Assembly (NCBI GenBank): GCA_011364985.1
Contig: RDOC01000001.1
Coordinates: 91,124 to 155,123 of the forward strand
Length of the DNA: 64,000 nucleotides
Reading direction: 5' to 3'
Origin: Candidatus Thorarchaeota archaeon
GTDB taxonomy: Archaea; Asgardarchaeota; Thorarchaeia; Thorarchaeales; Thorarchaeaceae
The translations under genes and the position numbers were made by a program. Within the stretch, counting starts at the first letter, position 1, and each line of letters opens with the position of its first letter. Shown here piece by piece: positions 13,736 through 53,209 of the stretch. The notes beneath the pieces were generated by a model. That model searched no databases, had not been told where the DNA came from, and worked only from the letters and a program-made list of their open reading frames with translations.

Positions 13736-14134
13736 TCAAAAGCTCTTGAAAACCTTGGCCAATGAAGGGGCTTCGACATGCATTTCAAACTCGTTGAATT
13801 GTCCAAAAGGAACAATGTGAACCTTGAATCCTCGGTCCTGAAGCCGCTTTGCAGTTTCCACAATGATGCTCTTGGCAAATGAAGACCTCGACTTGCTATC
13901 GCTCAAGTGTGCGAATGAATGAAGAACCACTGAGTCTACATTGACTTTGTCGCAAAGCCAACGAATGTTCTTGACCATTTTTCGAAGAACACCTGAACGG
14001 TCATCTTGGTCATGACGCTCCGATTGAATCCAGACAAGGAGCGATTCTCCAAGAGTCTCCTTTGCAGATTCCTTGGATTCGTCCTCTTCAGCGATATACC
14101 AGAAATGACTTACATGAAACATTAGTATCTTCAT
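13736..14134 (-). CDS. Free-standing archaeal ThrRS editing-domain-like protein
   Basis: 132 aa. MKILMFHVSHFWY...VVLHSFAHLSDSKSRSSFAKSIIVETAKRLQDRGFKVHIVPFGQFNEFEMHVEAPSLAKVF parallels the N-terminal editing domain of archaeal threonyl-tRNA synthetase (..YPFAHLS...GF.V...PFG....F...CKGHPL). Confidence 0.55.
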   Translation of the reverse strand: MKILMFHVSHFWYIAEEDESKESAKETLGESLLVWIQSERHDQDDRSGVLRKMVKNIRWLCDKVNVDSVVLHSFAHLSDSKSRSSFAKSIIVETAKRLQDRGFKVHIVPFGQFNEFEMHVEAPSLAKVFKSF

Positions 14135-14185
14135 TCTATGGATAGACTCCTACTTCGCTTGAGATAAGTCTCATGCCTTTGTAAA

Positions 14186-15058
14186 TCAATTTGCAAATGA
14201 ATTCTCGTCATTCGTGATTTGCTTGTCAAACGATGGTTCATTGGGAAGATTGTCAGACATCGGGCCAGGAACTTCAGGAGCAGAATCGGTCATCCTGCGA
14301 GGTATGGCCTTTCCATGTACCCAAATGGTATTGTCAGGAATGACCTTGTCTTTAGGTACAACGGTGTTCGCTCCAATAATGACATTGTTACCAATGTCTG
14401 CCCCAGCAAGAATGACTGCGTTCGCACCTACAGTGACATTGTTACCTATTCGTACTGTGTTGATATACAGGCGATCATCCTCGTAGACATGACCGCTTAT
14501 TACAGCATCATATCCGAAGAAGCAGTTGTCCCCGATTACTGTTCGTTCCGGATTAAACAGGCGCCCATTTCCCACAACAGTGTTGTAACCAATCTTTGCA
14601 CCAAACCAAATATGTCTGGGCTTGACATCGAAGAAAACTGAAAAGAACCAAGCGAAATACGGAAAGACAATATAGTAGACTTCGTAGAACTCATACAGGA
14701 GCCACACCTCAGATTTCAACGAGTAGTAACCGTCTTCAAGGAAAGGAATCAGTCTGCGGGAGAGCCTGAAAGTGATTGCAAGAAGGGCTAGAAAGATGCC
14801 ATAACAAACAAAGACAAGCGTGGGGAGAAACACTATGAACCAGAATCGCTCAAAGAGCACTATTGGAAAATAACCGCCAAGAAGGGCCTGAACGAGAGCT
14901 TTGATGTTCACAAAGGGCCAACCGATACCATCGATGAATGCATCAGTCTTGTCATAGGCGTCAACAACCAAGAAGACTGTTGGAATTGCAGATATTGTGA
15001 TGCTGACAAGTATTGAAATGGCCAAGTAGACGCCATAAACAATCGACCTGAGTTTCAT
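14186..15058 (-). CDS. Membrane-anchored hexapeptide-repeat (left-handed beta-helix) acyltransferase
   Basis: 290 aa with several N-terminal TM helices, then hexapeptide repeats (IGDNCFFGYDAVISGH, IGNNVTVGANAVILAGADIGNNVIIGANTVV). Confidence 0.65.
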   Translation of the reverse strand: MKLRSIVYGVYLAISILVSITISAIPTVFLVVDAYDKTDAFIDGIGWPFVNIKALVQALLGGYFPIVLFERFWFIVFLPTLVFVCYGIFLALLAITFRLSRRLIPFLEDGYYSLKSEVWLLYEFYEVYYIVFPYFAWFFSVFFDVKPRHIWFGAKIGYNTVVGNGRLFNPERTVIGDNCFFGYDAVISGHVYEDDRLYINTVRIGNNVTVGANAVILAGADIGNNVIIGANTVVPKDKVIPDNTIWVHGKAIPRRMTDSAPEVPGPMSDNLPNEPSFDKQITNDENSFAN

Positions 15059-16648: not shown

Positions 16649-17767
16649 ATGTCCACAAGTTGGCCATTTAGCTGGGAATTTGATAAATTTCGACACTTAG
16701 CAGAGGGAAATGACGTGAAATATGAAAACGATGTGATAAAGGCCCTGCAAACGCTGCAACTTGTTACGGAAGAAGGGAAGGAATCACGGGATATGCTCAT
16801 TTTAGAAACCATATTAAGAATGCAGAAGGAACCACCAGTTCATTTTTCCTTCTCTGAAATATTCAGTGCGCTTAAAGTGCATCACCCCTCTGCCAAGCTG
16901 AAGAAACCTGCCGTTCATAAGTCACTGCAGTGGCTGCTCGAGAACCAGCTTGTGCGGCTTGAAAGCTCAATAAAGTATCGCAAGAAGTACCTTGCTGACG
17001 CCAATACGCTGATGGCAGGACTCGAGAATCTCAAGATGCGTCTGAGCAAGGAGCTTCAAACCAAGAAAAGGCAAACGGAGAAAGCTCTGAAGTTGGTCGA
17101 ATCGTGCAATTGCTCTGAGCTTTCGCAGAGAATAATGACAGCGATCACTGGGAGGAGAGCATCCCCGAACTCACGATTCATGAGAGGAATGGAGGAGTTT
17201 GAGAGAGTCACAGACTCTACAATTTATGATAGAGCAACAGAAGGAGATGTAATAAGAAACTCTCTGCTTTGGATAGGTCCATTCACTGAAGGGGCCACTG
17301 AACGCTTCGGAAGAGTTGTAGAAGCGGCAAAAAAAGGAGCAGAAGTCAGATATGCTTCTCATCCTGATCTCCTATTGCAAAGTGATAAACTGAAGAAGGA
17401 CGTTTCTTCCGATTGGATTCAACATACCCTTGCAGATTTCATTGCAGTTAGGGCGGAGGGAAAGCTCATTGATTTGCGAATTATCGATGTAGACAAGAAA
17501 GGATACCAATTTGCAGCTCTGAACAACGAAGTCATGGCGTTCTTCATTTCAGAGGACCCCATCACAGCGGCATGGGTCACGCGGGAATTCAATCCAGACC
17601 TAATTGACAATGCAATTGCTGACTTTGATAAACGCTGGGAACAAGGAATCTCGATTTTTGAGATTACAGAAGAGAAATTGAGATCAATGCGTATTAATCC
17701 GAAGGGACATCTTCAAGCTGTGGTGTTGAAAGGTCTGAAGAAGAGAAAGAGTGGAGAGGGAGAATGA
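16649..17767 (+). CDS. TrmB-like transcriptional regulator, paralog 1 (wHTH, coiled coil, C-terminal domain)
   Basis: 372 aa. wHTH (FSEIFSALK...VHKSLQWLLENQLVRL), then a helical linker, then a C-terminal domain ending in NAIADFDKRWEQG. Same architecture as the next two genes. Confidence 0.55.
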   Translation: MSTSWPFSWEFDKFRHLAEGNDVKYENDVIKALQTLQLVTEEGKESRDMLILETILRMQKEPPVHFSFSEIFSALKVHHPSAKLKKPAVHKSLQWLLENQLVRLESSIKYRKKYLADANTLMAGLENLKMRLSKELQTKKRQTEKALKLVESCNCSELSQRIMTAITGRRASPNSRFMRGMEEFERVTDSTIYDRATEGDVIRNSLLWIGPFTEGATERFGRVVEAAKKGAEVRYASHPDLLLQSDKLKKDVSSDWIQHTLADFIAVRAEGKLIDLRIIDVDKKGYQFAALNNEVMAFFISEDPITAAWVTREFNPDLIDNAIADFDKRWEQGISIFEITEEKLRSMRINPKGHLQAVVLKGLKKRKSGEGE

Positions 17768-18678
17768 CGTATCAATCGCTTGAAGAGATACTGGAGCTTC
17801 TCGGGATGGACGTAGCCTCAAAACCAGTTGACATTTTGAGAGCTCTTCTTAATGCCCAGTCTGAATTGGGTGTCTTTCTAGAATTCTCTGATATAAGAAC
17901 CGAGTTAGAGTCACTAGTTGACGGAAAAAGCTTAGACCGTTCTTTGGTTCATCGTCAGCTCAAGTCATTAATAGAAGAAGGCTATGTTCGTGTTGATAAT
18001 AGTGGATATCGGCATAGATACATGACGAACATTAGCACACTGGCCAACGTTCTTGAGAAGAAGATCTCTGAATATCGTATCTTCTTGAAAGAGGAGATCG
18101 ACAGAATCGATAAGGATTTGTATCTTCTCGACCAGACAGACGCATCGGACCTTGGGAAATCGCTCATCGAGTTGATGAGTGGAATGAAGTCGGAAGAACG
18201 CCCTCATTTTGCATCAGGACTTGATGGATTACTCCGACTTGTTAAAGGAGAGGTTCAATCTAAGGCAAGAAGAGGGGAGACTATCAAGGCAACTGCTGAC
18301 TGGCTAAACACTGAGGCAGATCTTAAACCAGAACAGGTTGCCTGGATTTCTGACCTCGCTACCCGGGGCGTGAAGATGAAAGTATTAGGGCAGTTCAGAT
18401 CAGCAAAAGAAGCCCAGAAGAGAGTGAGGAAGCTGTATGATATAATGCAAATTCTAGGACTTGATATAGAATACAGAATTCGCCCTTTGAAGAAGGCGAC
18501 ATATCAATTCGTTGGCTTCAAGAGAATAGGGATTGTACTTGTTGTATCAGAGAACCCTCTCGCATCAACTTGGATTCCGAAGCAGAGCAATCCTCTGCTT
18601 ATTAACCATGCCATCGAAACCTTTGACAGGGACTTCGAAGCTGCCGAGCCAATAATCTTTGATGACTATCATGTATAG
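17764..18678 (+). CDS. TrmB-like transcriptional regulator, paralog 2
   Basis: 304 aa. wHTH (FSDIRTELE...VHRQLKSLIEEGYVRV), coiled coil, and a C-terminal domain ending in HAIETFDRDFEAA. Its ATG overlaps the paralog 1 stop (ATGA at 17764-17767). Confidence 0.55.
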   Translation: MTYQSLEEILELLGMDVASKPVDILRALLNAQSELGVFLEFSDIRTELESLVDGKSLDRSLVHRQLKSLIEEGYVRVDNSGYRHRYMTNISTLANVLEKKISEYRIFLKEEIDRIDKDLYLLDQTDASDLGKSLIELMSGMKSEERPHFASGLDGLLRLVKGEVQSKARRGETIKATADWLNTEADLKPEQVAWISDLATRGVKMKVLGQFRSAKEAQKRVRKLYDIMQILGLDIEYRIRPLKKATYQFVGFKRIGIVLVVSENPLASTWIPKQSNPLLINHAIETFDRDFEAAEPIIFDDYHV

Positions 18679-19651
18679 GTGGGAGAAGATGAGAATCCAA
18701 GAAAAAATGGAGACGCTCAGACGAGTAGGCATCAATCTCCTTGATTTTGAGATTGAATTGATTGGGTGTCTGTATCAGATTGGGGAAGGCTTCTCCAGCT
18801 GGGCCACTGCGACAGAGATTTGGCAACAGCTAACAAGCAGATCTGCAAAACCAAAGCAGATCTCTAAAGCATGGGTATATCGAGGGCTCAGCGAACTCGT
18901 AGAAAGAGGATTCATTCAGGTGGACCGAATAAATCGACCAATCAAGTTCATGATGACATCGGACACCCTAGTACAAGGAATTGAGCGAAAGAAGTCTGAG
19001 AAGAAGGAAGAGCTACTTGAAATGAGAAGAGTGCTTTCGAAGAGAGTCGATTCATTTGCTAGGATTGACGCTAAAGAATTGGCCACAGACCTGATGAATT
19101 ACCTGAAAGGAGAAGGGATGGCCGCAAAATCGGGAGTCATTGAAGGCATTGATAATGTTAGGGCTGTAATAGATCAAGAAATCGTTGGCAGAGCCCAAGC
19201 GGGAGACAAGATTTGGATAATCAATCCGATCTCTATACTGCAATTCGCTCAAATGAATAGCCCTACATATCGCAAGATCTTTGAGGCTACAGATCGCGAC
19301 GTCAATATCAGAGGCTTGCTAATTCTCACAGGAGAGGAAGAAACAACGAACCTCCCAAGAATAGACGTGCATATGACGAACACCATGAAGTTGTTTTTAG
19401 AGAGCATGCAACAAATGAGTATTGAGATTAGAGTCCTCCCTTCACAGGTCCGAACCTATAGAATGCTAGGTTTGAACAAGGAACGAATAATGCTGTACCT
19501 AAGTGATGTGGCTCAAGCTGACATTGCAGCGCTTATTCGTTACGAAGACAATCCATCCTTCGTGGAGGACGCAGCCAGTTCCTTCGAAAGACTATGGGAA
19601 CAGGGGCAGAACTTTCTTGCCCGCATGACGGAATTAGTTTCGGAATCATGA
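18659..19651 (+). CDS. TrmB-like transcriptional regulator, paralog 3
   Basis: 330 aa. wHTH (ATEIWQQL...VYRGLSELVERGFIQV), coiled coil, and a C-terminal domain ending in DAASSFERLWEQG. Candidate starts at 18659-18707 overlap or closely follow the paralog 2 stop (18678). Confidence 0.55.
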   Translation: MMTIMYRWEKMRIQEKMETLRRVGINLLDFEIELIGCLYQIGEGFSSWATATEIWQQLTSRSAKPKQISKAWVYRGLSELVERGFIQVDRINRPIKFMMTSDTLVQGIERKKSEKKEELLEMRRVLSKRVDSFARIDAKELATDLMNYLKGEGMAAKSGVIEGIDNVRAVIDQEIVGRAQAGDKIWIINPISILQFAQMNSPTYRKIFEATDRDVNIRGLLILTGEEETTNLPRIDVHMTNTMKLFLESMQQMSIEIRVLPSQVRTYRMLGLNKERIMLYLSDVAQADIAALIRYEDNPSFVEDAASSFERLWEQGQNFLARMTELVSES

Positions 19652-20844: not shown

Positions 20845-22737
20845 ATGATGATAATGGAATCCAGTTCCGGGTCCAAGGTTCTAATGAGTGGGAACGAGGC
20901 AATAGCCCGTGGAGCACTTGAAGCGGGGATTTGTTTTTGCGCGTCCTATCCTGGTACTCCCTCAACGGAGATTGCTGCTGCTTTGATGAAGTCCTCACAG
21001 AACCATGATATCTATGTGGAGTGGAGTGTGAACGAAAAGGTTGCACTTGAGGCCTGTGTGGCAGCAAGCTGGGCAGGAATTCCCGCCTTATGTTCAATGA
21101 AATCATTGGGTTTGAATGTAGCAGCAGACTTTCTTTTGAATGTTAATCTCTCAGGAACAGGTGCCGGAGGTGTTGTACTTGTTGTTTGTGATGATCCAAG
21201 AGGGCACAGCTCCAGTAACGAGCAGGACTCAAGATTCTACGCCAAGGCGGCCTATCTGCCACTTCTGGAGCCAAGTACATGCCAACAAGCTAAGGATGTC
21301 ATCTCAATAGCTCTTGCCCTCTCACAGAAGCATAGGATCCCGGTAATCGTCAGAAGCACAACCCGATTAAGCCATTCTCGCTCAGTGGTTAAACTCAGAG
21401 AGATTGCCTCAGCCACATGTACTACATCAGAAGAACTGGCTAATGCGCCATATAATGTACCAAATCCGCATCTGAAACACCAAGAGCTTGGGATGAAACT
21501 CAAGGAGATAGCACAAGATTTCGAGAAGTCCAAACTCAATTCTGTTTCAGGAGGAGAAAATACAGACACACTCATTATTGCGAGTGGTGTTGCTTTTCGT
21601 TATACTAAGGAAGCTGTTGACCTTCTCAACATTCCTTCTGTACAGATAGTTAATCTACTCACATCACATCCCCTTCCTCAGAAGGATGTAGTAGACTGGA
21701 TTAAGAATCGGCAGAAGGTGTTATTTGTTGAGGAAGTTGATCCTTTCATTGAGGATGGGGTGTTGGCTATCGCCGCCGAGCTACACTTGGACGAAATACC
21801 GACATTCTCAGGAAAGAGAAATGGTGTAGTTCCGTTCTTCGGAGAACTTGACACAAATACTGTCATGGATGCGTTGCGGTCCATTCAGGGAATTCCCCAG
21901 AAACATCAGGACGAACAGGATCTGAACACACTCAAATTGGCAAGACAGATGCTGATTCCAAGACGTTTGACCTTTTGTGCTGGGTGCACTCACCGGAATG
22001 TATACTGGGCTCTTGGGAGAGTGAAGAGGCGAATCAAAGAAGGATTGATTGTCACAGGGGATATCGGTTGCTATTCCTTGGGTGTGTTTTACAACGAGGC
22101 GATGAACACAATGCAGGCAATGGGCTCAGGAATTGGTACAGCCAGCGGTCTAGGGCAACTAGAACGGTTCGGTCTGAAGCAGAAGGTGGTGACGGTTGCC
22201 GGAGACTCGACTTTTTTCCATGCTTGCTTGCCAGGGCTCGTAAATGCCAAACACAAGAACGCAAACATGACATTTCTGATTCTTGATAACTCAACGACTG
22301 CAATGACGGGATTCCAACCTAATCCTGGCACTTCCAAGCAAAGGCTAGGTAACACTGTTGTCAGCATAGAAAGCATCGTAAGAGCAATTGAACCGTCGCA
22401 TTTTGAAATCATAAATGCAGTAGATATTGACGCTATGATTGAAACGATTCACAAGGCAGTAGAGATAGATGGTCTGAAAGTCATTCTAGTCAACAGCGTC
22501 TGCAGACTAGAGGAGCAACGGCTAGGGAAAACCCATGAGGAGTTTTCACGTGTTGTCGTTGATATCAACTTGTGCAAGGGAGAGAACTGCAGAATATGCA
22601 CCGACCAATTTTCCTGTCTGGCAATAGGATGGAATGAGAACCTCAAGAAGGCGGAGGTCATTGAGAACTTGTGCATTCGTTGCGGTGCCTGTATCCCAGT
22701 GTGTCCACATGACGCAATTAAGGGGGCAGAACCATGA
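20845..22737 (+). CDS. iorA: Indolepyruvate:ferredoxin oxidoreductase alpha subunit
   Basis: 630 aa. N-terminal SGNEAIARGALEAGICFCASYPGTPSTEI, a TPP-binding GDIGCY...GDSTFFH segment, and a C-terminal 2x[4Fe-4S] region (CKGENCRIC...CIRCGACIPVCP). It forms a two-subunit arrangement with the next gene. Confidence 0.8.
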   Translation: MMIMESSSGSKVLMSGNEAIARGALEAGICFCASYPGTPSTEIAAALMKSSQNHDIYVEWSVNEKVALEACVAASWAGIPALCSMKSLGLNVAADFLLNVNLSGTGAGGVVLVVCDDPRGHSSSNEQDSRFYAKAAYLPLLEPSTCQQAKDVISIALALSQKHRIPVIVRSTTRLSHSRSVVKLREIASATCTTSEELANAPYNVPNPHLKHQELGMKLKEIAQDFEKSKLNSVSGGENTDTLIIASGVAFRYTKEAVDLLNIPSVQIVNLLTSHPLPQKDVVDWIKNRQKVLFVEEVDPFIEDGVLAIAAELHLDEIPTFSGKRNGVVPFFGELDTNTVMDALRSIQGIPQKHQDEQDLNTLKLARQMLIPRRLTFCAGCTHRNVYWALGRVKRRIKEGLIVTGDIGCYSLGVFYNEAMNTMQAMGSGIGTASGLGQLERFGLKQKVVTVAGDSTFFHACLPGLVNAKHKNANMTFLILDNSTTAMTGFQPNPGTSKQRLGNTVVSIESIVRAIEPSHFEIINAVDIDAMIETIHKAVEIDGLKVILVNSVCRLEEQRLGKTHEEFSRVVVDINLCKGENCRICTDQFSCLAIGWNENLKKAEVIENLCIRCGACIPVCPHDAIKGAEP

Positions 22738-23339
22738 AGAACCAGTACAATATTCTAATCGCTGGAGTGGGAGGACAGGGAAACCTAGTGTGTGGGTGTG
22801 TCCTAGCAGAGGCGGCCCTTCAGCAAGGGCTCACTCCCACCACTGGAGAAACTTTCGGAGCCTCTCGGCGTGGTGGCACAGTCCTGACACATCTGCGTCT
22901 AGACGCGGATGATTTGGGACCCCTAATCCCGCGAGAACAACTTGACCTGTTGCTGGGACTAGAACCGCTAGAGTCCCTTAGAGCTGCAGTTGATCTAGCC
23001 ACATCACGTACCACAGCAATAATCAGCATGACCAAGATTGAAACCCCAGAGTCAATTGCAGGCAAAGTGAAGTATCCAGAGATTACAGAGATTAAGAGAT
23101 CTCTTCGAGCCATTTGCGGAAAGGTCTATTCTCTCGATCCCGGCCGAATCTTTGCTGAGACAGGCACAAGACGTGCACTGAATGCATACATGCTTGGTGC
23201 GATGGTCACCAGTGGAGTGACCTCGCTCACTGAGGAGCACATCCTAAGGGCGATTCAAACGACCTTGAAAGAATGGGATCTCAATCGTGTTGCTTTTGAG
23301 GCCGGTAAGAAGGACTTCAGGAGCTTGGTAGACCTCTAA
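22734..23339 (+). CDS. iorB: Indolepyruvate:ferredoxin oxidoreductase beta subunit
   Basis: 201 aa with NILIAGVGGQGNLVCGCVLAEAA (gamma-domain GGQG motif). Overlaps the iorA stop (ATGA). Confidence 0.75.
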   Translation: MKNQYNILIAGVGGQGNLVCGCVLAEAALQQGLTPTTGETFGASRRGGTVLTHLRLDADDLGPLIPREQLDLLLGLEPLESLRAAVDLATSRTTAIISMTKIETPESIAGKVKYPEITEIKRSLRAICGKVYSLDPGRIFAETGTRRALNAYMLGAMVTSGVTSLTEEHILRAIQTTLKEWDLNRVAFEAGKKDFRSLVDL

Positions 23340-25660
23340 TCACTTTTCATCTTCTTGGCCTCTGTTGCACGCCGCGCCTCTCTCCACATCAATTCTGAGA
23401 GAACGTGAAACATATCGGCAACTCCGTCACCCGTCTTCGCACTGCTCTCCATATAGAGAAAGCCCTGGTCCTCGGCCCATCGCTTTGCCTCGTCGGACGG
23501 CACTGCACGGTCAGGAAGGTCGATCTTGTTGCCCACCACTATCATCGGCACTCTTGTGCCAACGGACTCGTCTGCCTCCGTGACCCATTTTGATAACTCT
23601 GTGAAGGACCGCCGACGTGTCACGTCAAAGACAAGAATGACGCCAGCTGCACCGCTGTAGTACATCTTCCGTACAGCCTTGAATCGCGCCTGACCGGCCA
23701 CATCCCACGCCTGCAGTTTTATGCCCACGGCGTAATCGGTTTCGGAGGGCGATATATGGGCGAGTTTGACGGCGAACTGACTTCCGATCGTGGTTTTGTA
23801 ATCACGCTCAAATACACCAGTCACATAGCGATTGACGAGAGTTGTCTTGCCCACAGCACCCTCCCCAGTTACCATCACCTTGAACAGATAGGTATAGGTA
23901 TCGCTGGGTGTGCCAGGTCGAGGGGGTTTTGGTGTCCTACTTCTAATCTCAGTCACGAGCAGGCTCTCTGCGGTGGTTTCGTCCACCACGGGTATCGGTG
24001 TGACCTCAGCAGCAGATTCTTCAATCATCGCAGACACATCATCAAATTCGGACAGGGCTTGTGTGCCCTCTTCCTCAATTCCAAAGAGCTGGTCCAGAAG
24101 TTCTTCGGCGGCCTTCAGAGACTCGGACGAGTCATCGGAAGCGGTGGTACGCAGAATCTCTGCAGCCTTTTGTCTGGTGACCTCACCAAAGCCAGTTCCA
24201 CTAACAGGGGTGAAGGGGGACTCCTCTTCGATTATCGTTTCAGTTGGAGTGAATTCGACACTGGACTGCATCATCACTGAGGGCTCAGCTGCTGGGGCAG
24301 CAATCACTGCACCTTCTTCCACAAGAATAGCGGTTTCTGGTGTGGTGACCTGCTTGACCTGTCCCGTGGCGTCCGTCCACATGAGAACGATAGGTCTGAT
24401 AATAACGGATCCCTCGCTCTTTGGTGCGAGCTGAAGTTCTAGGCATTTTGTTTCACCCGGTCCAAGGTCGAAGCGAATCTGTTCCGGTGTAACATCTAAA
24501 TAGTCCTTGGGAAACCAGTAAAGCTTTCCTGTGATTCCATGGATAGGCTGATCGGACACATTTACTAGAGTGAGCCTTCCAGTAAGGTCTGCACTTGTCT
24601 TTACTTCAGTGCTCACTTCAAACTTCGGAATGATTTGATATAGTCCCTGAAAGGCCTTCAGCGGCCCGTCGGAGACCCCTACCAGAATCTCTTTCCTATC
24701 ATCCCGGTTTGCGTCCCCAACGCTTATTGAAAGAATCTTCATATCCAAGTCCATGGACGCAATCTGTTGGAACTCAGCCATCTGTAGGTTGTAGACCACA
24801 ACCTTATGATCGGAAGTCGCAATGATGAGTTCATCCATGTGGTCTGCATTGACCTCTTCAATCCTGACAGATAAGGCCTTGACATTCTCCAGCTTTGTGA
24901 ACAGGTCCAGCTTGCTCTCTTCATTCCGATAAACACGTACGGAGCCATCGCGAGTGACGACGCCGAGTTCCATCTTGCGGTCTCCGAGGACATCACCAGC
25001 AGCGACTGAGATGACAGGACTTGGCAGGTTAAGTACCTCAATCTGTTCAATGGAGTGATTTCGTACCTTGAACACTCTGAGTGTCTTGTCAAGATTCCCC
25101 GTGACTATCTCATCAATCTCATCCCCGATTACATCACAGGTACCGATCGCGATGGGCATATCCTCTAGTTGATGCTTGAGATATTCTGTGAGATTGTTGT
25201 CAGTGTCCATCTTGTAAATTCGAAGTGTAGAGTCACTTGCACCAACTAGAATCTCATTCTTGTTGTCCCCCGTCACGTCTGTGACATACACTGCTGTTAC
25301 AAAGGTTCCAACAGCTTTCTCTGCAAGGAGTTCTAGTTGACCGCTTGGTGCATATCGGTAGACTTGGACAGTACCAGCCTCACCCTCCACATCCTGAGGA
25401 CCCAGACTTCTTCCAACGACTATCTCCATGAAACCGTCGTTGTTTGCATCTGAAACTTTGGCTGAGAGAATACTTCCTTCGAGGTCTTTTTGGGCCAAGA
25501 ACTTGGTTTCACCATTGATTACTTCATAGAGCTTCAAAACGCCGTCTCTGTCCCCAGTGCAAATCTGTGAACTACCTGAACCAGTGATGCTTCCTACCGC
25601 AATAGCGCTTGTGCTCCTGTCATCTTCAACTTCGAAAAGAATCCTTGGCGAGGACAACAT
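23336..25660 (-). CDS. Multidomain protein: seven FG-GAP/VCBS-like repeats (predicted beta-propeller), beta-sandwich domain, acidic linker, C-terminal Rab/Ras-like small GTPase
   Basis: 774 aa. Residues 1-340 carry seven repeats with D-x-N/D-x-D-x-x-x-E-I/L-hydrophobic-V-G loops (SDANNDGFMEIVVG, TDVTGDNKNEILVG, CDVIGDEIDEIVTG, AGDVLGDRKMELGV, EEVNADHMDELIIA, VGDANRDDRKEILVG). Residues 589-760 carry all G motifs: GEGAVGKT (G1), YKTTIG (G2), WDVAGQ (G3), GNKID (G4) and SSAKTG (G5). There is no C-terminal Cys prenylation motif. Confidence 0.75.
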   Translation of the reverse strand: MLSSPRILFEVEDDRSTSAIAVGSITGSGSSQICTGDRDGVLKLYEVINGETKFLAQKDLEGSILSAKVSDANNDGFMEIVVGRSLGPQDVEGEAGTVQVYRYAPSGQLELLAEKAVGTFVTAVYVTDVTGDNKNEILVGASDSTLRIYKMDTDNNLTEYLKHQLEDMPIAIGTCDVIGDEIDEIVTGNLDKTLRVFKVRNHSIEQIEVLNLPSPVISVAAGDVLGDRKMELGVVTRDGSVRVYRNEESKLDLFTKLENVKALSVRIEEVNADHMDELIIATSDHKVVVYNLQMAEFQQIASMDLDMKILSISVGDANRDDRKEILVGVSDGPLKAFQGLYQIIPKFEVSTEVKTSADLTGRLTLVNVSDQPIHGITGKLYWFPKDYLDVTPEQIRFDLGPGETKCLELQLAPKSEGSVIIRPIVLMWTDATGQVKQVTTPETAILVEEGAVIAAPAAEPSVMMQSSVEFTPTETIIEEESPFTPVSGTGFGEVTRQKAAEILRTTASDDSSESLKAAEELLDQLFGIEEEGTQALSEFDDVSAMIEESAAEVTPIPVVDETTAESLLVTEIRSRTPKPPRPGTPSDTYTYLFKVMVTGEGAVGKTTLVNRYVTGVFERDYKTTIGSQFAVKLAHISPSETDYAVGIKLQAWDVAGQARFKAVRKMYYSGAAGVILVFDVTRRRSFTELSKWVTEADESVGTRVPMIVVGNKIDLPDRAVPSDEAKRWAEDQGFLYMESSAKTGDGVADMFHVLSELMWREARRATEAKKMKSD

Positions 25661-35277: not shown

Positions 35278-37176
35278 CTAACCGCGTCTCTTGACCACCG
35301 GTACGGTTGCAAGAGCAGACTTGGCCGTTTTACGCGTTGGCGCTTCACATTCCTCTTCCAGCGAGTCAATCCATATGTCTATCTCTCTGTCTGGAGATAA
35401 CCATCTTTGCCTTTCCTCACTCCAGAGATGTTCGGGGAATCGCCATTGGCCCCATATACCACTTCCGAGGGGAGAGGCAACTACATTCCAACCGAGTTTC
35501 CTAATTGTGTCCATCATCTTGGTTGACCCGCCAATGGGAAGGTCGATGAGCATTGTGAGATCTCGTCTCTTACCATATTGCAGAACAACGTGCGGAATCT
35601 CTCTTGACCATGCGTCAAGCATGCTACTGATTCTGCTGTCTGTGGCACGGAGAGCCACTCTTTCAACCAAGCCAATATTGTGTGCATCCCAGACGCTCCG
35701 AATCAGTCCAGCAGACCGCAACCGCTTCATACGACGCGAAAGCTGGTTTTGTCCAATGCCTAGTCGCTTTCTTAGTGCTCTCGTTGAAGAAACATTTTCG
35801 TGAATATAGCTTAAGATCATTATGTCAGTGTTGTCAATGTATTCATTTGTTGTTAGTGAAGGTGTATCAATCTGCTCTATCACCTTGTCTAGTGATTCTC
35901 TCTCTATCCTTTGTCCCCATCCCAGCATTGCCACCCATGGAATAGCCCATTGGTGGTTTGCCACATCATAATGGTAGAACGAGAATGAATGACCCGCTGA
36001 ATGCGTTTCCCCTATGTCCACTGTTACGTCAATGTCATTGAGCCGCTTTGCCATAAGCTTGAGCGATTTGATATTGTCATAATTGTCAGGAACAGCCAAT
36101 CTAGCCATTACTTGCCATGGTCCGTTAAGGATATGTCTAATGCTGTACAAGAAAGGGCACTTATTCAAGAAACGAGAAGGGTCAAGTGAAGGTATACCAG
36201 AGAGCAAGACGTGAAAAGATCGAATTCCGATTCTTGAAAATGGCGTCGTTGTAAGGCCAATCAAAACACATTTCCGTTTGAGCCTATTGATTTGAGTGGA
36301 AATCCACGAACTGCTAAGCCCGGTCAATGATGCCAACACGTCATTTGATGCTTCCTGATTTCTCAGCAAGATATCTAGAATCTTCACCTCTGCATGCCCC
36401 AGTGACACTTGAATGTCTTGGCTTCTTCGAGCCATATACTCGATATATTCCTCAAAGTCTAGCACATGGCCATACCGTGCCATAGCCACAAGCTCATGAA
36501 TGAGAAGTCCAAAATGGCGTCTTCCCCCTAGTGCGCTTATCCATTTCATCAGCTTGAATGAGTTATACTCAAGGTTTGAGCGCATCCTTCTTGAAGGAAT
36601 TGCCTTCCATAACTCAATCCAACGACTCTGTTCATTCTTGTTCAGATACTGGCGGGCGTATTCTGTACCAAAATCCCTTTGAGCTTCAGTACAAAGATCA
36701 TTAGGTAGGGCTGCAATGAAACTCTCTCTGAAAACAACTCCCTTAAGTGATAGTCTACCACTTGCGACTTTTTCTGAGATCTTGAGTTCGCGAATTTTGG
36801 CATTGAAGTGTCCCCCAATTCGCAGAACTCCACTTTCAGGAGAAATTGCTATGTCAGTGGGACCCAAGGGCACCTCAAGTCCATAACACTCTTGGATCAC
36901 CTTTGCAGAAGCAGACCAATAGTCTGCAATATTGGATTCTAGTGAAATCATCACCATCTTCGGTTTACTTGAGGCCTTAAGAGCTTGTGGTGTTTTAAGT
37001 GTGTTTGGAAAAACGCCAATTGCTGAGGTGTTTTCCGTAGAGTTGTCGTATGGAACGCAACTTATCATCTGGACGTACATTTCGACCGTCATAGTTTGAA
37101 TTGAAATCCTGCGCAGAATAGCCGATGAAAATGTACGGACCACCAGAGAATCCCATAGAACCGTGGTAATGGTCAA
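35278..37176 (-). CDS. Large regulator with at least two Lrp/AsnC-type wHTH modules
   Basis: 632 aa with VKILDILLRNQEASNDVLASLTGLSSSWISTQINRLKRKCVL and IMILSYIHENVSSTRALRKRLGIGQNQLSRRMKRLRSAGLI, each followed by a ~100-aa domain. The N-terminal ~250 aa are unassigned. Confidence 0.5.
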   Translation of the reverse strand: MTITTVLWDSLVVRTFSSAILRRISIQTMTVEMYVQMISCVPYDNSTENTSAIGVFPNTLKTPQALKASSKPKMVMISLESNIADYWSASAKVIQECYGLEVPLGPTDIAISPESGVLRIGGHFNAKIRELKISEKVASGRLSLKGVVFRESFIAALPNDLCTEAQRDFGTEYARQYLNKNEQSRWIELWKAIPSRRMRSNLEYNSFKLMKWISALGGRRHFGLLIHELVAMARYGHVLDFEEYIEYMARRSQDIQVSLGHAEVKILDILLRNQEASNDVLASLTGLSSSWISTQINRLKRKCVLIGLTTTPFSRIGIRSFHVLLSGIPSLDPSRFLNKCPFLYSIRHILNGPWQVMARLAVPDNYDNIKSLKLMAKRLNDIDVTVDIGETHSAGHSFSFYHYDVANHQWAIPWVAMLGWGQRIERESLDKVIEQIDTPSLTTNEYIDNTDIMILSYIHENVSSTRALRKRLGIGQNQLSRRMKRLRSAGLIRSVWDAHNIGLVERVALRATDSRISSMLDAWSREIPHVVLQYGKRRDLTMLIDLPIGGSTKMMDTIRKLGWNVVASPLGSGIWGQWRFPEHLWSEERQRWLSPDREIDIWIDSLEEECEAPTRKTAKSALATVPVVKRRG

Positions 37177-43636: not shown

Positions 43637-44651
43637 TAGGCATTCTCCTACGATTTCTTCGACCGTTTTGACATTCAATAAAGGTGCGACTGCTCACTTC
43701 GAGCTACTACTTTATATCTGCTCCCCAATGATTTCCATTGTTTTTCTGCATATTTGATGAAGTTGCAGAGGTTTCTTGGAGCTAGCAACTGCGACTACAT
43801 CATCTCATCTATTTTTCGGTGGTTGGTACCTCTTCCTATAATATGCGTTTTCGTCTTCTTTCCCAACCAAAGGCCTTGTAAGACTGGCTAAAGCTTCGCT
43901 TTTCTGTGTTCTGGTCACTTTTGTTTGACTTGCCTACTTCTCCCACCTCACATGAATCATGCGTTATTATTGCTATATCAGAAGGGGTTGCATAAGTCTC
44001 GATCAAGGAACTCAGAATCATCATTGGGATTAATGCTTTCAATCGCATGGTTGATCCCCTCAAATGATTGTGGTATAGGCATGTCCAGTCCAATAGATTC
44101 ACATAAGTTCAGATTTGAGTCAGTTTGTTCTCTGTTGTTGAAGCTTTTGGAACTCTACTCTTTGTCACATTATGAATCTTGCTTGCAGGAATTCTACTTC
44201 ATGTTGTGCCATTCTTCAGCAGATGCGGTATAGAATAGTCATAAGGCACTGAGAGTCAGAATTGGTTCTGATAGAGAAAGGATTTGAGAATGGATATATG
44301 CCTCCATAGATTGGGTTCGTTATTGTTGGATGGACATATTCTACTAGAAACTGCTGTTTTTCAATTGATCTTCTGTGTCATTTTCTGCTAACAGAGTTGA
44401 CTGGATTAGGCACCACTAGGATAGAGAATCCAGTGCATCTTCTTTTCCATATGCTTCGAGAGATATCATTTGCATTACACTTTGGATTCTGACGAAATGA
44501 AGATGCAATACTCTCGACATCTAAACAGTCAGAAGATTGACCTGCTTTAGAGACAAAACAACAAAGCATTTGCAAATTGGCTAGTAGCGTTTCAGCATAA
44601 GATCATATTGCGAAAGACTGAGGGTGATTTGCAAGTCAATGCTATGAATAC

Positions 44652-46148
44652 CTAACCATATCGAGCAGAATCAATTGGCACAGCAGGAATCTCTATGATA
44701 AACCTCGCCCCCTGACTGTAATCTCCTGGCACTCTGTTTTCCACAACGATTTTCCCCCCATAATGACTAATGATGCGGTTTAGTAAGGTAAGACCAACTC
44801 CAGTTCCAAGGTGGCCAGAACTTAAGAGCGATACTCTTCCAAATAGTAGTCCTTTTGTTTGATCAGGGATTCCCGTCCCATGATCTGCAATGTCAATTCT
44901 AATCCTTGATTTATCTTCACTCATGACCATACTGATATCTACATCAACTGAAGGTTCTGGATCGAATCTCATTGCATTATGAAGGACTGCATAGAAAGCA
45001 TCTGTCAAGTACTCATCGGCCATTACTTCAAGCAACTCTGGTTCAATCTTGGTCTTCAGATTGAGTTCCTTGTAAGGCAAGTCTTTCTGGACTCTGTCCG
45101 TGGCTTTTGTTAATGCAGCAAGAGGGTTAGTGGGCGTAAGTTCGGGGGGTGAGTCCTCTATCTTTTTGAATTTTTGAACATTCTTGATTAGCCGGTTGCT
45201 TCGAATCATTTGATATAATCCCTCTTGAATCAGTTCTTTTGTCCTATTTGTAAGGCCTGTATCCAACAGAAGAATATCGAAGATCCCATATACAGCCTGA
45301 TTGATATTAGATAAATCGTGACTCATCAAATCCAAAAAGAACTCGGCCCGATTCCGAGACTCTTCTATCTTCTTCTCTGATTCTATTCTGTCAGTATTAT
45401 CTACCTGAACAATCTGGATTGCATCTTCTCCATCATACTGAATGACAGCGAAATGTGAATTAATCCATCTACAAGTCCCATCTCTGCGAATTATCCTAAA
45501 TTGCTGATGTGTTGATGTCTCAGATCCTTCAAGAAATCTCGAATATGCCTCTCTCAATATAACGACATCCTCAGTATGGATGAAGTTCGACATATGCTTT
45601 ACCTCAAGATTCAGAATCTCATCAATAGTGCACCCCATCATATCAGCGTATGCCTGATTTGAGTAGACAATTCTGTCATCTTGGAGAATCGCGATACCAT
45701 GAACAGAAGACTCAGCTAAAGCTTTGTAATTTTCCTCACTTCGTTTAAGGTTATTCTCAGCTTGTTTTCGTTCAGTAATATCAGATATGACCGTTTGTAT
45801 AACCTTTTCTTTACCTATATCAACAAAATTAGACGAAACATCAGCAATGAATGTTTCGCCGTTCTTCCTTCTTAACGTTGCCTCAATTCTGGTCCAACCT
45901 TGCACGTTGATTGCCTCTACAATCTGTTGAATGGTTTCTTTGTCAGCAATTTTGGTGAGTTTTATGGAGAGCAGCTCATCTCTTGTGTAACCAAAAAGGT
46001 CCACAGCGCTCTGATTTGCATCAAGTGTATTTCCATTCAGGCTTCGGATCAGAATTGCATCTCTGGTTGAATGAAAGAGCTGGCTGTATTTCTCCTCACT
46101 CATTCGAAGCTCCTCTACAGCTTCCTTCTGTGGTGTTATATCCTGCAT
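44652..46148 (-). CDS. Multi-PAS sensor histidine kinase
   Basis: 498 aa with three PAS-like segments separated by DITERK/EELR-type linkers, an H-box (LMSHDLSNINQAV), LHNAMRF, DHGTGI and GTGVGLTLL. Paralog of the 40109 kinase. Confidence 0.8.
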   Translation of the reverse strand: MQDITPQKEAVEELRMSEEKYSQLFHSTRDAILIRSLNGNTLDANQSAVDLFGYTRDELLSIKLTKIADKETIQQIVEAINVQGWTRIEATLRRKNGETFIADVSSNFVDIGKEKVIQTVISDITERKQAENNLKRSEENYKALAESSVHGIAILQDDRIVYSNQAYADMMGCTIDEILNLEVKHMSNFIHTEDVVILREAYSRFLEGSETSTHQQFRIIRRDGTCRWINSHFAVIQYDGEDAIQIVQVDNTDRIESEKKIEESRNRAEFFLDLMSHDLSNINQAVYGIFDILLLDTGLTNRTKELIQEGLYQMIRSNRLIKNVQKFKKIEDSPPELTPTNPLAALTKATDRVQKDLPYKELNLKTKIEPELLEVMADEYLTDAFYAVLHNAMRFDPEPSVDVDISMVMSEDKSRIRIDIADHGTGIPDQTKGLLFGRVSLLSSGHLGTGVGLTLLNRIISHYGGKIVVENRVPGDYSQGARFIIEIPAVPIDSARYG

Positions 46149-50887: not shown

Positions 50888-53113
50888 TCATGGACTTACT
50901 CTGATTCGTCCTTTGCCCTTGGCTGTAATCCGCCCAATCATTTTTGCATGTTCTACATGACGTGCTTGGAGATTTCGAAGTAGTAAGTCGCATCGTTTTT
51001 CTGGAACACTGATAAGAAGTCCACCGGAGGTCTGCGCATCAGCCAGCAGGACCCGATCCAATTCTGACAATGCATCGTCAAAATCAACGTGTGGTCTTAC
51101 ATGAGCGAGATTATCAAGAGTGCCACCGGGAACCACGTTCGCGACGGCAAGGTTTCGCGCCTCCTGAAGTATCGGTACATGACTAGCGACAAGTTCAACA
51201 TCTACTTTACTGCCTGCAGCCATTTCTCTTAGGTGTCCCAGAAGCCCAAAACCGGTGATATCGGTACAGGCACTCACGCCAACTTCAATCATGACCTCGG
51301 CGGCGGTCTTGTTGAGTTCAGCCATTATTCGCGTTGCTTCTTCAGCCATAGCCACATCGACAAGACCTCGTTTGATGCCAGTGGCTATAATTCCCAAACC
51401 GATTGGTTTTGTCAAGACAAGCACATCATCGAGCTGAGCAGTACTATTTCGGAGTATCCTGTCAGGGTGAACGAACCCGGTCACTGCCAATCCATACTTT
51501 GGTTCGGTATCGTCAACCGTATGACCACCAACTATGCTGATACCAGCTTCTTTGACCTTATCTTGTGCGCCCCTGATGATATCTTTCAGAACAGATAGTG
51601 GAAGTCTATTTGATGGGAAGCCAACTACGCTCAGAGCAAAAAGCGGTTTTGCACCCATGGCATAAATGTCACTGAGTGAGTTTGCTGCTGATATTGCCCC
51701 GAACCAATATGCGTCATCGACAATAGGAGTGAAAAAGTCAACAGTTTCCACAAGGGCATACTCATCATTTAGTTTGTAGACTGCAGCATCATCAGCGGTC
51801 TCAATGCCTACCAAGACAGAGGCATCAGTTGGAATGGGGAGGTCTCTAAGCACCTCCTCAAGAGCCTGCGGCCGAAGCTTGCAGGCACATCCTAGGCCAT
51901 GAGTATATTGCGTGAGCTTGTACTCTTTTTGTTCATCCGTCTTCGTCACAGAAGCTGTGCTTGCATCGGGCTGAAGTCTTCTAACGGCTTCAGTCACTAT
52001 TGTTGCAGCCTGTTCAATATCCTCTTTGGTTGTATATTTGCCCACAGAAAAACGAATTGTGCCCATTGCCCACTCTAGCGGTACATCCATAGCCTGTAAA
52101 ACCTGAGATACCTCAACCTCCTCTGCATGACAAGCAGCCCCAGCGGATGCAGCGACTCTATCCCCAATCTCAGACAGCAAGGTATTGGCTTCCACATTTC
52201 GAAAACTTAGACTTAGCGTGTTTGGAAGACGCTTCTCAGGATGTCCATTTAGCCTGATCGACTCCTCACCAAGAGCATCAACCAAGTCATTATATAGAAG
52301 GTCCCGCAGTTCCCTGACCTTCTTCATATTCTTCTCAAGGTTGCGGTTTGCAAGCTCACAAGCCTTTCCAAGTCCTACAATTTCAAGAACATTCTCTGTT
52401 CCGGGACGCCGATCAAGCTCATGATTCGCTCCATGCATCAGCTTGCTTAGTTTAGTGCCAGTCCTGACATAGAGTACTCCGATTCCCTTAGGAGCATAGA
52501 GCTTGTGTCCTGCCACCGACAAAAGATCGACATGAAGGTTGTCAACTGCCACAGGGATTTTTCCTACAGACTGCGCAGCATCTGTATGAAAGAGTGCACC
52601 ATTCTCGTGTGCAATCTCCGTCAATTCTGTAATAGGTTGAATAGTTCCAACCTCATTATTGGCATGCATGATAGTTACAAGAATTGTTTCGGAGTCTATC
52701 GCCTTCTCAAGGTCATCTGGATTCACAAGCCCATTCTCATCGACTGGAAGGATAGTGATACGGAAGCCCTGGTCCTTCAACCAATCACAAACCTCAGCAA
52801 CGGCAGGATGTTCAATTGCAGACGTGATTATGTGATTGCCATGTTCTCGTCGGGACATCGCAACGCCCTTGATTGCGTAATTATTGCTCTCAGTTCCCCC
52901 GCTAGTGAAGACAATCTCATGGGCTCTGCAATTAAGAAGGGAGGCAACCTGTGCTCTCGCCTTCTCCACAGCCCTCTTTGCCTTTGCACCATAAAGATGG
53001 CTGCTGGATGGATTTCCGAAATGCTCGTACAGATATGGAGCCATCTCGTCAGCAACTTCCTTGTCAATCGGCGTTGTTGCATTATAGTCTAGATATATGG
53101 GACGGTCAGGCAT
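50888..53113 (-). CDS. selD: Fusion protein: NifS/IscS-like cysteine desulfurase (class V aminotransferase) plus selenophosphate synthetase SelD
   Basis: The N-terminal half has YLDYNATTP, GGTESNN and SVAGHKLYAPKGIGVLY (PLP Lys context). The C-terminal half has KLTQYTHGLGCACKL (the SelD Cys/Lys active-site loop, Cys form) and AIR-synthase-like domains. The track ORF extends to 53206; MPDRPIYLDYN at 53113 is the likelier start. Confidence 0.8.
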   Translation of the reverse strand: MPDRPIYLDYNATTPIDKEVADEMAPYLYEHFGNPSSSHLYGAKAKRAVEKARAQVASLLNCRAHEIVFTSGGTESNNYAIKGVAMSRREHGNHIITSAIEHPAVAEVCDWLKDQGFRITILPVDENGLVNPDDLEKAIDSETILVTIMHANNEVGTIQPITELTEIAHENGALFHTDAAQSVGKIPVAVDNLHVDLLSVAGHKLYAPKGIGVLYVRTGTKLSKLMHGANHELDRRPGTENVLEIVGLGKACELANRNLEKNMKKVRELRDLLYNDLVDALGEESIRLNGHPEKRLPNTLSLSFRNVEANTLLSEIGDRVAASAGAACHAEEVEVSQVLQAMDVPLEWAMGTIRFSVGKYTTKEDIEQAATIVTEAVRRLQPDASTASVTKTDEQKEYKLTQYTHGLGCACKLRPQALEEVLRDLPIPTDASVLVGIETADDAAVYKLNDEYALVETVDFFTPIVDDAYWFGAISAANSLSDIYAMGAKPLFALSVVGFPSNRLPLSVLKDIIRGAQDKVKEAGISIVGGHTVDDTEPKYGLAVTGFVHPDRILRNSTAQLDDVLVLTKPIGLGIIATGIKRGLVDVAMAEEATRIMAELNKTAAEVMIEVGVSACTDITGFGLLGHLREMAAGSKVDVELVASHVPILQEARNLAVANVVPGGTLDNLAHVRPHVDFDDALSELDRVLLADAQTSGGLLISVPEKRCDLLLRNLQARHVEHAKMIGRITAKGKGRIRVSP

Positions 53114-53209
53114 TCTATCTTCAACCCCTATATTGAATTCGGGTCTAGGACCCTCAAAATTCTTTTGAAATGCACAAATGTTATCTTGCTCAGCTCTGGC
53201 GACCATGAA

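Follow-up and report, generated by a model that had tools for sequence, protein, structure and literature searches.

We analysed a 64,000-nucleotide stretch of DNA from a Candidatus Thorarchaeota archaeon (contig RDOC01000001.1, positions 91,124 to 155,123; hereafter, the window) and found that one of its minus-strand genes encodes a 774-aa protein in which a seven-bladed FG-GAP-type beta-propeller, an immunoglobulin (Ig)-like beta-sandwich, an acidic linker and a Rab-like small GTPase (G) domain form a single polypeptide. A comparison with orthologues showed that the four parts have stayed together throughout the class, as a single-copy gene subject to strong purifying selection, and that essentially all Thorarchaeota carry this gene. 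An identical protein is present in NCBI as NHI82772.1, on a 471 kb contig, where it is named "GTP-binding protein [Candidatus Thorarchaeota archaeon]." The domains themselves are known, and their combination is apparently a new architecture that the literature does not describe: no propeller–Ig–Rab-like fusion was found in the full-text literature searched, a provisional result as most subscription-journal papers lie outside the reach of that literature. We tentatively interpret the protein as a cytosolic, Thorarchaeia-specific "large Rab-like GTPase" whose nucleotide state would gate a built-in propeller–Ig interaction platform.

The coordinates of the gene and its parts are given in Table 1. 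A first-pass annotation, made from the letters alone, had read the translation as a seven-repeat FG-GAP/integrin-type propeller, an "Ig/CARDB-like" sandwich, an acidic Pro/Thr-rich linker and a complete Rab/Ras-like GTPase without a C-terminal prenylation Cys. Every structural part of this layout was recovered with profile and structure-prediction tools, the missing Cys and the character of the linker included, and the nucleotide range assigned to the G domain (23381-23896) was arithmetically right. All structural statements made here rest on predicted models. In the alignment of orthologues, the mean column identity was highest in the G domain (0.84), followed by the propeller (0.70), the sandwich (0.66) and the linker (0.46). 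Neither a signal peptide nor a transmembrane segment was found in the 774-aa protein, with a maximum Kyte–Doolittle hydropathy over 19 residues (KD19) of 1.32. Since a lipidation site is also missing, the protein was taken as cytosolic.

The G domain was matched by the Pfam models Ras on residues 594-756 (E=5e-45, 153 bits), Roc on residues 594-714 (E=1e-30, 107 bits) and Arf (E=7e-13, 49 bits), as well as by the NCBIfam model TIGR00231 small_GTP (E=1.4e-24). The best match among PDB sequences was the crystallised Thorarchaeota Rab 7EZB (E=2.6e-42, 42% identity), and the other 59 PDB matches listed were all Rab, Ypt or Sec4 proteins. The five G motifs are arranged in the correct order and spacing. 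By direct reading, RabF-like motifs were recognised as well; scored against the RabF consensus motifs, of which that of RabF1 is IGVDF, they were partly kept: IGSQF (F1, 3/5), KLQAW (F2, 4/5), RFKAVR (F3, 3/6), YYSGA (F4, 4/5) and LVFDVT (F5, 4/6). No Cys occurs in residues 589-774, and none of the aligned orthologues has a C-terminal Cys either; the tail, which ends in ...EAKKMKSD, is basic in the orthologues too. Because a prenylatable Cys is absent and the tail is only 14 residues long, the domain is Rab-like and not a bona fide eukaryotic-type Rab. Judged from its sequence, the G domain was shown to be catalytically complete and Rab-like.

The closest solved counterpart of this domain is thus Thor-Rab (7EZB; Tran et al. 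2024, PMC10933270), with which it shares the five G motifs and the partly kept RabF-like motifs, in addition to a short tail and the lack of a C-terminal prenylatable Cys. However, Thor-Rab is a stand-alone protein of ~180 aa, whereas the fused G domain makes up the last quarter of a 774-aa protein. Asgard archaea have many multidomain GTPases; in those described in that study the GTPase is joined to a roadblock or longin domain or, in MK-D1, to "unknown" domains, and none of them is a propeller–Ig fusion (PMC10933270). A motif search found no other small GTPase gene in the window. In the closed chromosome CP070761.1, a stand-alone Ras-family GTPase of 177 aa, 35% identical to the fused G domain, is located ~4 kb from the fusion orthologue (locus coordinates 14110-14643); the window has no equivalent of that gene between IorA and the DHH gene.

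In the N-terminal part of the protein, seven acidic loops were located at residues 24, 71, 128, 176, 223, 269 and 316, with a spacing of 46-57 residues. According to direct reading, each of them is followed by a hydrophobic strand with a terminal G and then by a ..R(V/I)(Y/F) strand. The pattern [DE]-x-x-x-D-x-x-x-E fits six of the seven loops, the first one (SITGSGSSQ) being degenerate. The full DxNxDG motif (DANNDG) is present only in blade 2; coordinating residues at loop positions 1, 3, 5 and 9 are carried by blades 2, 6 and 7 (DANNDGFME, EVNADHMDE and DANRDDRKE, respectively), blade 3 has Thr at position 3, and blades 4 and 5, which are the best conserved of the propeller, have a hydrophobic residue at that position. 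Two general Pfam repeat models were matched, namely PF13517 FG-GAP_3 (E=1e-18, 68 bits with a cut-off of 26.9, in five stretches) and PF01839 FG-GAP (E=1.6e-8, 34.6 bits with a cut-off of 22.1). The AlphaFold2 model of residues 1-450, for which a 29-sequence alignment served as input, had a predicted local distance difference test score (pLDDT) of 90.3 and a predicted template modelling score (pTM) of 0.86. As far as residue 337 it contained 28 strands, the number expected for seven blades of four strands each, and blade 7 was completed by the N-terminal strand 7-11, which took the last position in it (velcro closure). Structure prediction, which the first-pass annotation had proposed as a check, thus gave a closed seven-bladed propeller.

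We also compared the model of residues 1-450 with the PDB using Foldseek. Ranked by E-value, the best matches were BBS2 (2e-18), BBS9, BBS7 and BBS1, then ITFG2, followed by integrin alpha6 and by generic WD40 propellers (beta'-COP, Lis1 and others); PDB 4v0n was among the matches. The ITFG2 match extended over the whole propeller, with a template modelling (TM) score on the target (TMt) of 0.66-0.71 and a root-mean-square deviation of ~4 A, and seven-bladed propellers had TMt values of up to 0.8. This ranking is biased towards eukaryotic matches, because the PDB contains few prokaryotic FG-GAP propellers. When the family profile was searched against PDB sequences, ITFG2 was obtained with E=3e-8, mainly over residues 6-81 and with a shared N-terminal register; the signature common to both propellers is GD.x.D...E(L/I)VVG..DG.(L/V).(V/L)(Y/F). 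The values for the BBS7 and BBS2 sequences were only ~1e-3.

Several Pfam models named after these eukaryotic proteins were matched by the propeller: Beta-prop_BBS7 (E=2e-19, 70 bits) and BBS2_Mid (E=3e-13, 50 bits), both above their cut-offs, Itfg2 (E=2e-8, 34.4 bits with a cut-off of 27, only at profile positions 62-119 of 330), and also PTHB1_N and BBS1. However, the BBS2_Mid, Beta-prop_BBS7, BBS1 and Itfg2 models also match unrelated prokaryotic FG-GAP proteins (P0127, P0128, P0136, P0142 and others), and specific BBSome orthology on the basis of Pfam was therefore rejected. The nearest sequence relatives of the propeller outside the family are large FG-GAP repeat proteins with 24-30% identity, mostly metagenome proteins without informative names. 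The propeller is a member of the FG-GAP/integrin-type superfamily (PMC8023676), and its nearest solved structures are those of BBS1/2/7/9 and ITFG2, which are cytosolic eukaryotic proteins. Its resemblance to the BBS proteins is one of superfamily level, that is, a likeness in fold that does not establish ancestry.

The beta-sandwich spanned residues ~343-447 in the AlphaFold2 model, and its prediction alone reached a pLDDT of 91.7. The pTM of the propeller–sandwich model suggests that the two domains pack against each other in one defined orientation. A Foldseek search with the lone sandwich matched TRAP lumenal domains, with a TM score on the query (TMq) of 0.79, and all matches had E-values between 2e-5 and 1e-3. 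The CARDB structure 3idu (TMq 0.71), in line with the first reading of this domain, was among them, together with MSP/VAP, complement MG, one COPI-leaf chain and an SPD-2/ASH domain; no BBS GAE domain was present in the top 50. The Pfam ASH model was matched below its threshold (E=0.0012, 19 bits with a cut-off of 27). In the predicted model, the sandwich is thus a generic Ig-like (E-set) fold. The first-pass annotation had also called it "appendage-like," but no specific match to adaptin-ear/GAE appendages was obtained, and with weak Foldseek matches, no BBS GAE among them and a sub-threshold ASH match such an assignment is unsupported.

The linker comprises 141 residues rich in E (16%), T, A and S (11% each) and P (8.5%), with a net charge of -22, and no Pfam domain was found in it. 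It is mostly unconserved apart from three islands. Island 2 is probably an amphipathic helix, judging by its sequence; A518, E519, L522 and F526 are invariant in the 29 orthologues, S514, L515, L521, L525 and G527 show a conservation of 90% or more, and the local conservation of this island is 0.69-0.75 vs ~0.3 in its flanks. In island 3, S566, I572, R575 and P582 are invariant, whereas the conservation of K578 and G583 is 90% or higher.

The possibility of an assembly join in the linker, raised in the first-pass annotation together with a search for the same domain order in other genomes, was addressed by examining the distribution of the gene. Full-length relatives drawn from NCBI, JGI, ENA and Logan assemblies formed more than 120 clusters (90% identity) of proteins of 740-826 aa, which were 63-89% identical to the query with ~99% query cover. 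Among the GTDB species representatives, ~68 genomes contained full-length orthologues at one locus each, with 61-84% identity over residues 2-450; nearly all of these genomes are titled Thorarchaeota, and a few are labelled "Promethearchaeota," "Hermodarchaeota" or "uncultured archaeon." One of the orthologue-bearing genomes, CP070761.1, is a closed 3.16 Mb chromosome. In the 29-sequence alignment, the indels of the linker are in frame, and the propeller, the sandwich and the G domain stay in frame. Together, the number of clusters and of species genomes, the closed chromosome and the in-frame indels exclude an assembly join or frameshift; the fusion is real.

When 1.84 billion 50%-identity representatives were searched exhaustively with HMMER, using residues 1-450 as the query, the full-length architecture was recovered only in the Thorarchaeia family and in one divergent protein (P0122; 781 aa, 40% identity over residues 6-448). 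The C-terminal end of the latter is a Ras domain, and its branch consists of a single small cluster. Identity did not exceed 30% in any other match, and those alignments were confined to the propeller; outside the Thorarchaeia family and the P0122 group, no G domain was found among the best 150 distant propeller relatives. Given this distribution, the domains were fused a single time, either within the Thorarchaeia lineage or shortly before its origin, and the fusion was then kept.

The gene order around the fusion gene is constant in other Thorarchaeia genomes and includes convergent IorA/IorB genes, a divergent ABC ATPase gene, and genes for a permease, a binding protein, a DHH protein and three unknown paralogues. 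Despite this conserved synteny, the neighbourhood gave no functional clue, as its genes are not all on one strand.

Table 1. Coordinates of the fusion gene, its domains and its motifs in the window
Feature	Residues	Position	Strand	Basis or remark
Whole gene, 774-aa propeller–Ig–linker–Rab-like GTPase	1-774	23336..25660	-	Uninterrupted ORF, ATG start; stop codon 23336-23338
Predicted seven-bladed FG-GAP/BBS/ITFG2-type beta-propeller	1-340	24641..25660	-	Pfam, AlphaFold2, Foldseek
Predicted Ig-like (E-set) beta-sandwich against propeller	341-447	24320..24640	-	AlphaFold2, Foldseek
Acidic low-complexity linker	448-588	23897..24319	-	Composition, per-window conservation, in-frame indels
Linker island 1, TGFG	489-492	24185..24196	-	T489, G490, F491 at least 90% in 29 orthologues
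Linker island 2, SLKAAEELLDQLFG	514-527	24080..24121	-	Conservation in 29 orthologues
Linker island 3, ES.LV.EIR.R.PKPPRPG	565-583	23912..23968	-	Proline-rich basic motif directly before G domain
Rab-like small GTPase domain	589-760	23381..23896	-	Pfam Ras, TIGR00231, PDB sequence matches
G1/P-loop, GEGAVGKT	599-606	23843..23866	-	Invariant in 29 orthologues
Switch I/G2, YKTTIGSQF, with T624	621-629	23774..23800	-	Invariant in 29 orthologues
G3/switch II start, WDVAGQ, with catalytic Gln657	652-657	23690..23707	-	Invariant in 29 orthologues
G4, GNKID	710-714	23519..23533	-	G710, N711, K712, D714 invariant in 29 orthologues
G5, SSAK	739-742	23435..23446	-	S739, S740, A741 invariant, K742 at least 90% (29 orthologues)
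Short basic C-terminal tail EARRATEAKKMKSD without Cys	761-774	23339..23380	-	Direct reading

As for the mode of action, we hold, as a tentative preference, that the G domain would act as a nucleotide switch, while the propeller–Ig module would serve as a built-in protein-interaction platform, in the role of an effector or adaptor, and that the nucleotide state of the former would gate the availability or assembly of the latter. Most likely, the switch regions would dock in a GTP-dependent manner, either within one molecule or between two, and their target would be the propeller/Ig module or the putative linker helix SLKAAEELLDQLFG. The conserved linker islands, including PKPPRPG, are candidate docking sites for regulators, such as guanine nucleotide exchange factors (GEFs) or GTPase-activating proteins (GAPs) of the roadblock/longin type, or for other partners. 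A precedent for an Ig/ASH-like Rab-binding element is provided by OCRL1, whose ASH domain and helix bind Rab8. As a lipid anchor is missing, the protein could associate with membranes only through partners or through its short basic tail. A second precedent is ARL6-GTP, whose switch regions contact the BBS1 propeller at blades 1 and 7 (PMC10356136); what ARL6-GTP does there in trans would be done here by one polypeptide. For the layout as a whole, the eukaryotic large Rabs (Rab44/45/46) provide a precedent, with Ca-binding and coiled-coil domains ahead of a C-terminal Rab domain (PMC8303950).

Several points weigh against such gating. The contact between the G domain and the propeller–Ig module is putative, and the long, poorly conserved linker fits plain tethering without cis docking equally well. 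The divergent relative P0122 keeps only island 3 (as PKPRKPGRP), so the architecture does not depend on islands 1 and 2. The locus is not linked to any gene for a GEF, a GAP, or a roadblock or longin protein; its neighbours encode an Ior oxidoreductase, an ABC transporter and a DHH protein. Since the likeness to the BBS proteins is only of superfamily level, the ARL6–BBS1 precedent is an analogy. In addition, no targeting to membranes was seen for the crystallised stand-alone Thor-Rab when it was studied in HeLa cells (PMC10933270).

The main rival to the gating model assigns the sensing role to the N-terminal part. According to it, the propeller–Ig module would bind Ca2+/Mg2+ or a ligand via the acidic loops or the top face and tune exchange or hydrolysis on the Rab-like domain; the latter would signal to separate effectors, as in a Ca-regulated large Rab like Rab44/46. 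We consider this possible, if rather improbable. The integrin-type coordinating pattern of blades 2, 6 and 7, whose acidic loops are conserved, is consistent with sensing; integrin-type propellers bind Ca2+ by the DxDxDG motif of the A-B loop (PMC8023676), and large Rabs sense Ca through their N-terminal domains (PMC8303950). However, the full motif is confined to blade 2, and in the best-conserved blades, 4 and 5, the hydrophobic residue at position 3 makes canonical metal coordination impossible. Moreover, the metal sites of integrin propellers are structural and not regulatory.

Large Rabs and integrin-type propellers each resemble the fusion protein in part. The large Rabs Rab44, Rab45/RASEF and Rab46/CRACR2A likewise combine N-terminal (potentially) Ca-binding/interaction modules with a C-terminal Rab-type G domain; however, their N-terminal parts contain EF-hands and a coiled coil, unlike the unrelated FG-GAP propeller and Ig-like sandwich described here, and they are prenylated, whereas the fusion protein is not (PMC8303950). 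No EF-hand or coiled-coil matches were found in the fusion protein with Pfam. CRACR2A also has a proline-rich region, which may be likened to the stretch before the G domain in Thorarchaeia. The likeness to large Rabs is one of convergent architecture, not of homology. Integrin-alpha and prokaryotic FG-GAP-VCBS propellers (PMC8023676) share with the Thorarchaeia propeller the FG-GAP repeats, the acidic A-B loops and, in blade 2, the full DxNxDG motif, and integrin alpha6 was among the top Foldseek matches. However, FG-GAP-VCBS proteins are typically secreted or located at the surface and are often very large, whereas the Thorarchaeia protein has neither a signal peptide nor a transmembrane segment and is fused to a cytosolic GTPase.

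Another explanation, which we regard as unlikely, is that the fusion is a remnant of an ancestral partnership, older than eukaryotes, in which a Ras-superfamily switch worked with a propeller–sandwich adaptor of the FG-GAP/BBS/ITFG2 type. The propeller–sandwich would then be specifically related to BBS1/2/7/9 (propeller plus GAE) or to ITFG2/KPTN, and eukaryotes would have inherited the propeller lineage and parted it from the GTPase, the partnership being split into ARL6 with the BBSome (BBS1/2/7/9) and the Rag GTPases with KICSTOR/GATOR (ITFG2/KPTN). If true, this would imply an Asgard origin of the BBSome and KICSTOR propellers, and GTPase-gated adaptor recruitment would be older than internal membranes. 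The Foldseek ranking, in which the BBS proteins and ITFG2 stand above integrin and all WD40 propellers, points in this direction. In the same search, full-length BBS9 scored 7e-17 vs 1e-10 for the BBS9 propeller alone (4yd8), with alignments of 470-545 columns, which hints that the post-propeller domain aligns too. Beta-prop_BBS7 is level with FG-GAP_3 in bits, the ITFG2 profile match starts in the same register, and the host is an Asgard archaeon. No link between BBS/ITFG2-type propellers and Asgard archaea was found in the full-text literature searched.

Several observations speak against such an ancestry. In addition to the non-specific Pfam models, the marginal BBS7/BBS2 profile values and the Foldseek bias described above, the lone sandwich has a generic Ig/E-set look with no BBS GAE in the top 50, the G domain is Rab-like and not Arf/Arl-like (Ras 153 vs Arf 49 bits), and the family is limited to Thorarchaeia plus one offshoot. 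Nor are Thorarchaeia usually placed as the lineage closest to eukaryotes. The BBSome subunits BBS1/2/7/9 (6VBU, 6VOA, 4V0N) share with the Thorarchaeia protein the seven-bladed FG-GAP-like fold and the Pfam models, and with ARL6 they represent the same propeller class working with a small GTPase (PMC10356136). However, that partnership is non-covalent and its GTPase is Arf-like and membrane-anchored, whereas the Thorarchaeia protein is covalent, Rab-like and without an anchor. In BBS2/7/9, the propeller is followed by coiled-coil, GAE, platform and helical domains; in the fusion protein, which had no Pfam matches to later BBS regions, it is followed by one generic Ig-like sandwich and a disordered linker. 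The sequence similarity to the BBSome is marginal and common to generic prokaryotic FG-GAP proteins. The analogy with coat and trafficking scaffolds, which the first-pass annotation had itself labelled as speculation, received partial backing, as the propeller best matches the coat-like BBS2/9/7/1, with the caveats that the sandwich is generic and that the BBS Pfam matches are non-specific.

Among solved proteins, ITFG2 of KICSTOR (9V6E, 9O5A) alone was matched by the family profile with clear significance, and it shares the repeat signature, the N-terminal register, the fold of the whole propeller and a Pfam match above the cut-off. It is reported to act in a GTPase-regulating pathway with GATOR1 and Rag GTPases. 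Unlike the fusion, however, it is a propeller-only subunit of a four-protein complex, and the significant sequence match is limited to the first two blades or so. Counterparts of KPTN, SZT2 or KICS2 were not seen, although no search aimed at them was made.

A ROCO/GAD-type protein, in which a Roc domain would cycle by dimerisation and the propeller would take the role of the LRRK2-like WD40 domain, is very improbable. ROCO proteins are multidomain, often with propellers, and the Pfam Roc match fits such an origin of the G domain; however, the Ras model beats it (153 vs 107 bits), and the domain order, with the propeller first and the G domain last, is the reverse of that in LRRK2. The ROCO family is defined by the Roc-COR tandem, and membership was rejected as the COR domain is missing; with only 14 residues after the G domain, none is possible. 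Least credible of all, to the point of being negligible, is an artefact joining two genes or a mobile NTPase–propeller defence/toxin protein: a low-complexity linker is where joins could hide, and PMC8023676 (citing Makarova 2019) places NTPase-plus-repeat proteins and VCBS/FG-GAP propellers in conflict systems, but the same single-copy fusion recurs in more than 120 independent clusters with stable synteny, the GC content of the gene (0.48-0.51 vs a window range of 0.40-0.51) shows no anomaly, and a defence role was rejected as no PADLOC-DB family was matched at E<=0.01.

Few targets of the many small GTPases of Asgard archaea are known, and here one such GTPase shares a polypeptide with what may be its effector or adaptor platform. 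The protein is conserved class-wide, and its propeller is of the class found in two eukaryotic complexes, KICSTOR and the ARL6-recruited BBSome. It may thus offer a tractable, self-contained test case of how an archaeal Rab-like switch is coupled to a scaffold where both lipid anchors and internal membranes are lacking. A specific relationship of the propeller to BBS/ITFG2 would provide an archaeal root for those eukaryotic complexes; without one, the protein would remain a lineage-defining multidomain GTPase that has not been described before, and a further example of domain shuffling among eukaryote-signature proteins in Asgard archaea, of which lineage-restricted fusions have been reported (Liu et al. 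preprint).

The taxon labels of some metagenome-assembled genomes bearing orthologues differ between databases. Contig WJMJ01000128.1 (P0279/L051) is assigned to Lokiarchaeota in one and to Promethearchaeota in another, and other genomes (among L011 and P0022) are labelled Hermodarchaeota or Sifarchaeia; their proteins are 65-70% identical and fall inside the Thorarchaeia family. In GCA_053940065.1 (locus L004, 11794-15144), near a divergent orthologue with ~40% identity, a 319-aa protein with an Arf-family domain is followed by a 772-aa protein without a Pfam match, and this locus may be another multidomain-GTPase neighbourhood.

Within the window, the stop-codon ends of the fusion gene and of the convergent IorB-like gene (22734-23339, plus strand) overlap by 4 bp (23336-23339), which leaves no intergenic terminator space between the two genes. 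An equally tight convergent arrangement was observed in CP070761.1 (10271-10274 in locus coordinates). Positions 16649-19651 of the window (plus strand) contain three tandem, end-overlapping open reading frames (ORFs) of 372, 304 and 330 aa, which are seemingly paralogous and, by eye, share a C-terminal ...NP.L(I/V).. A...F(D/E)..(W/F)E.. motif. The trio is essentially without Pfam matches, except that one member has a weak IclR-type helix-turn-helix match, and a similar unannotated trio is found at the same syntenic position in other Thorarchaeia genomes (L001, CP070761.1, 15931-18274; L002, 13966-16921).

Three further minus-strand genes of the window were also noted. The ORF at 50888-53206 encodes a 772-aa protein with a class-V aminotransferase domain of the NifS/cysteine-desulfurase type (Aminotran_5, E=5.5e-84, residues 37-399) and AIR-synthase-related N and C domains of the SelD/ThiL/HypE type (residues 472-770); a role of this fusion enzyme in mobilising sulfur or selenium is possible. 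The product of the gene at 35278-37176 has 632 aa and contains two or more DNA-binding domains of the winged-helix (MarR/AsnC) type. The gene at 44652-46148 encodes a 498-aa PAS-PAS-HATPase_c sensor histidine-kinase-like protein and coincides with the lowest GC content of the window (0.397 at 44001-46000 vs ~0.44-0.51 elsewhere).

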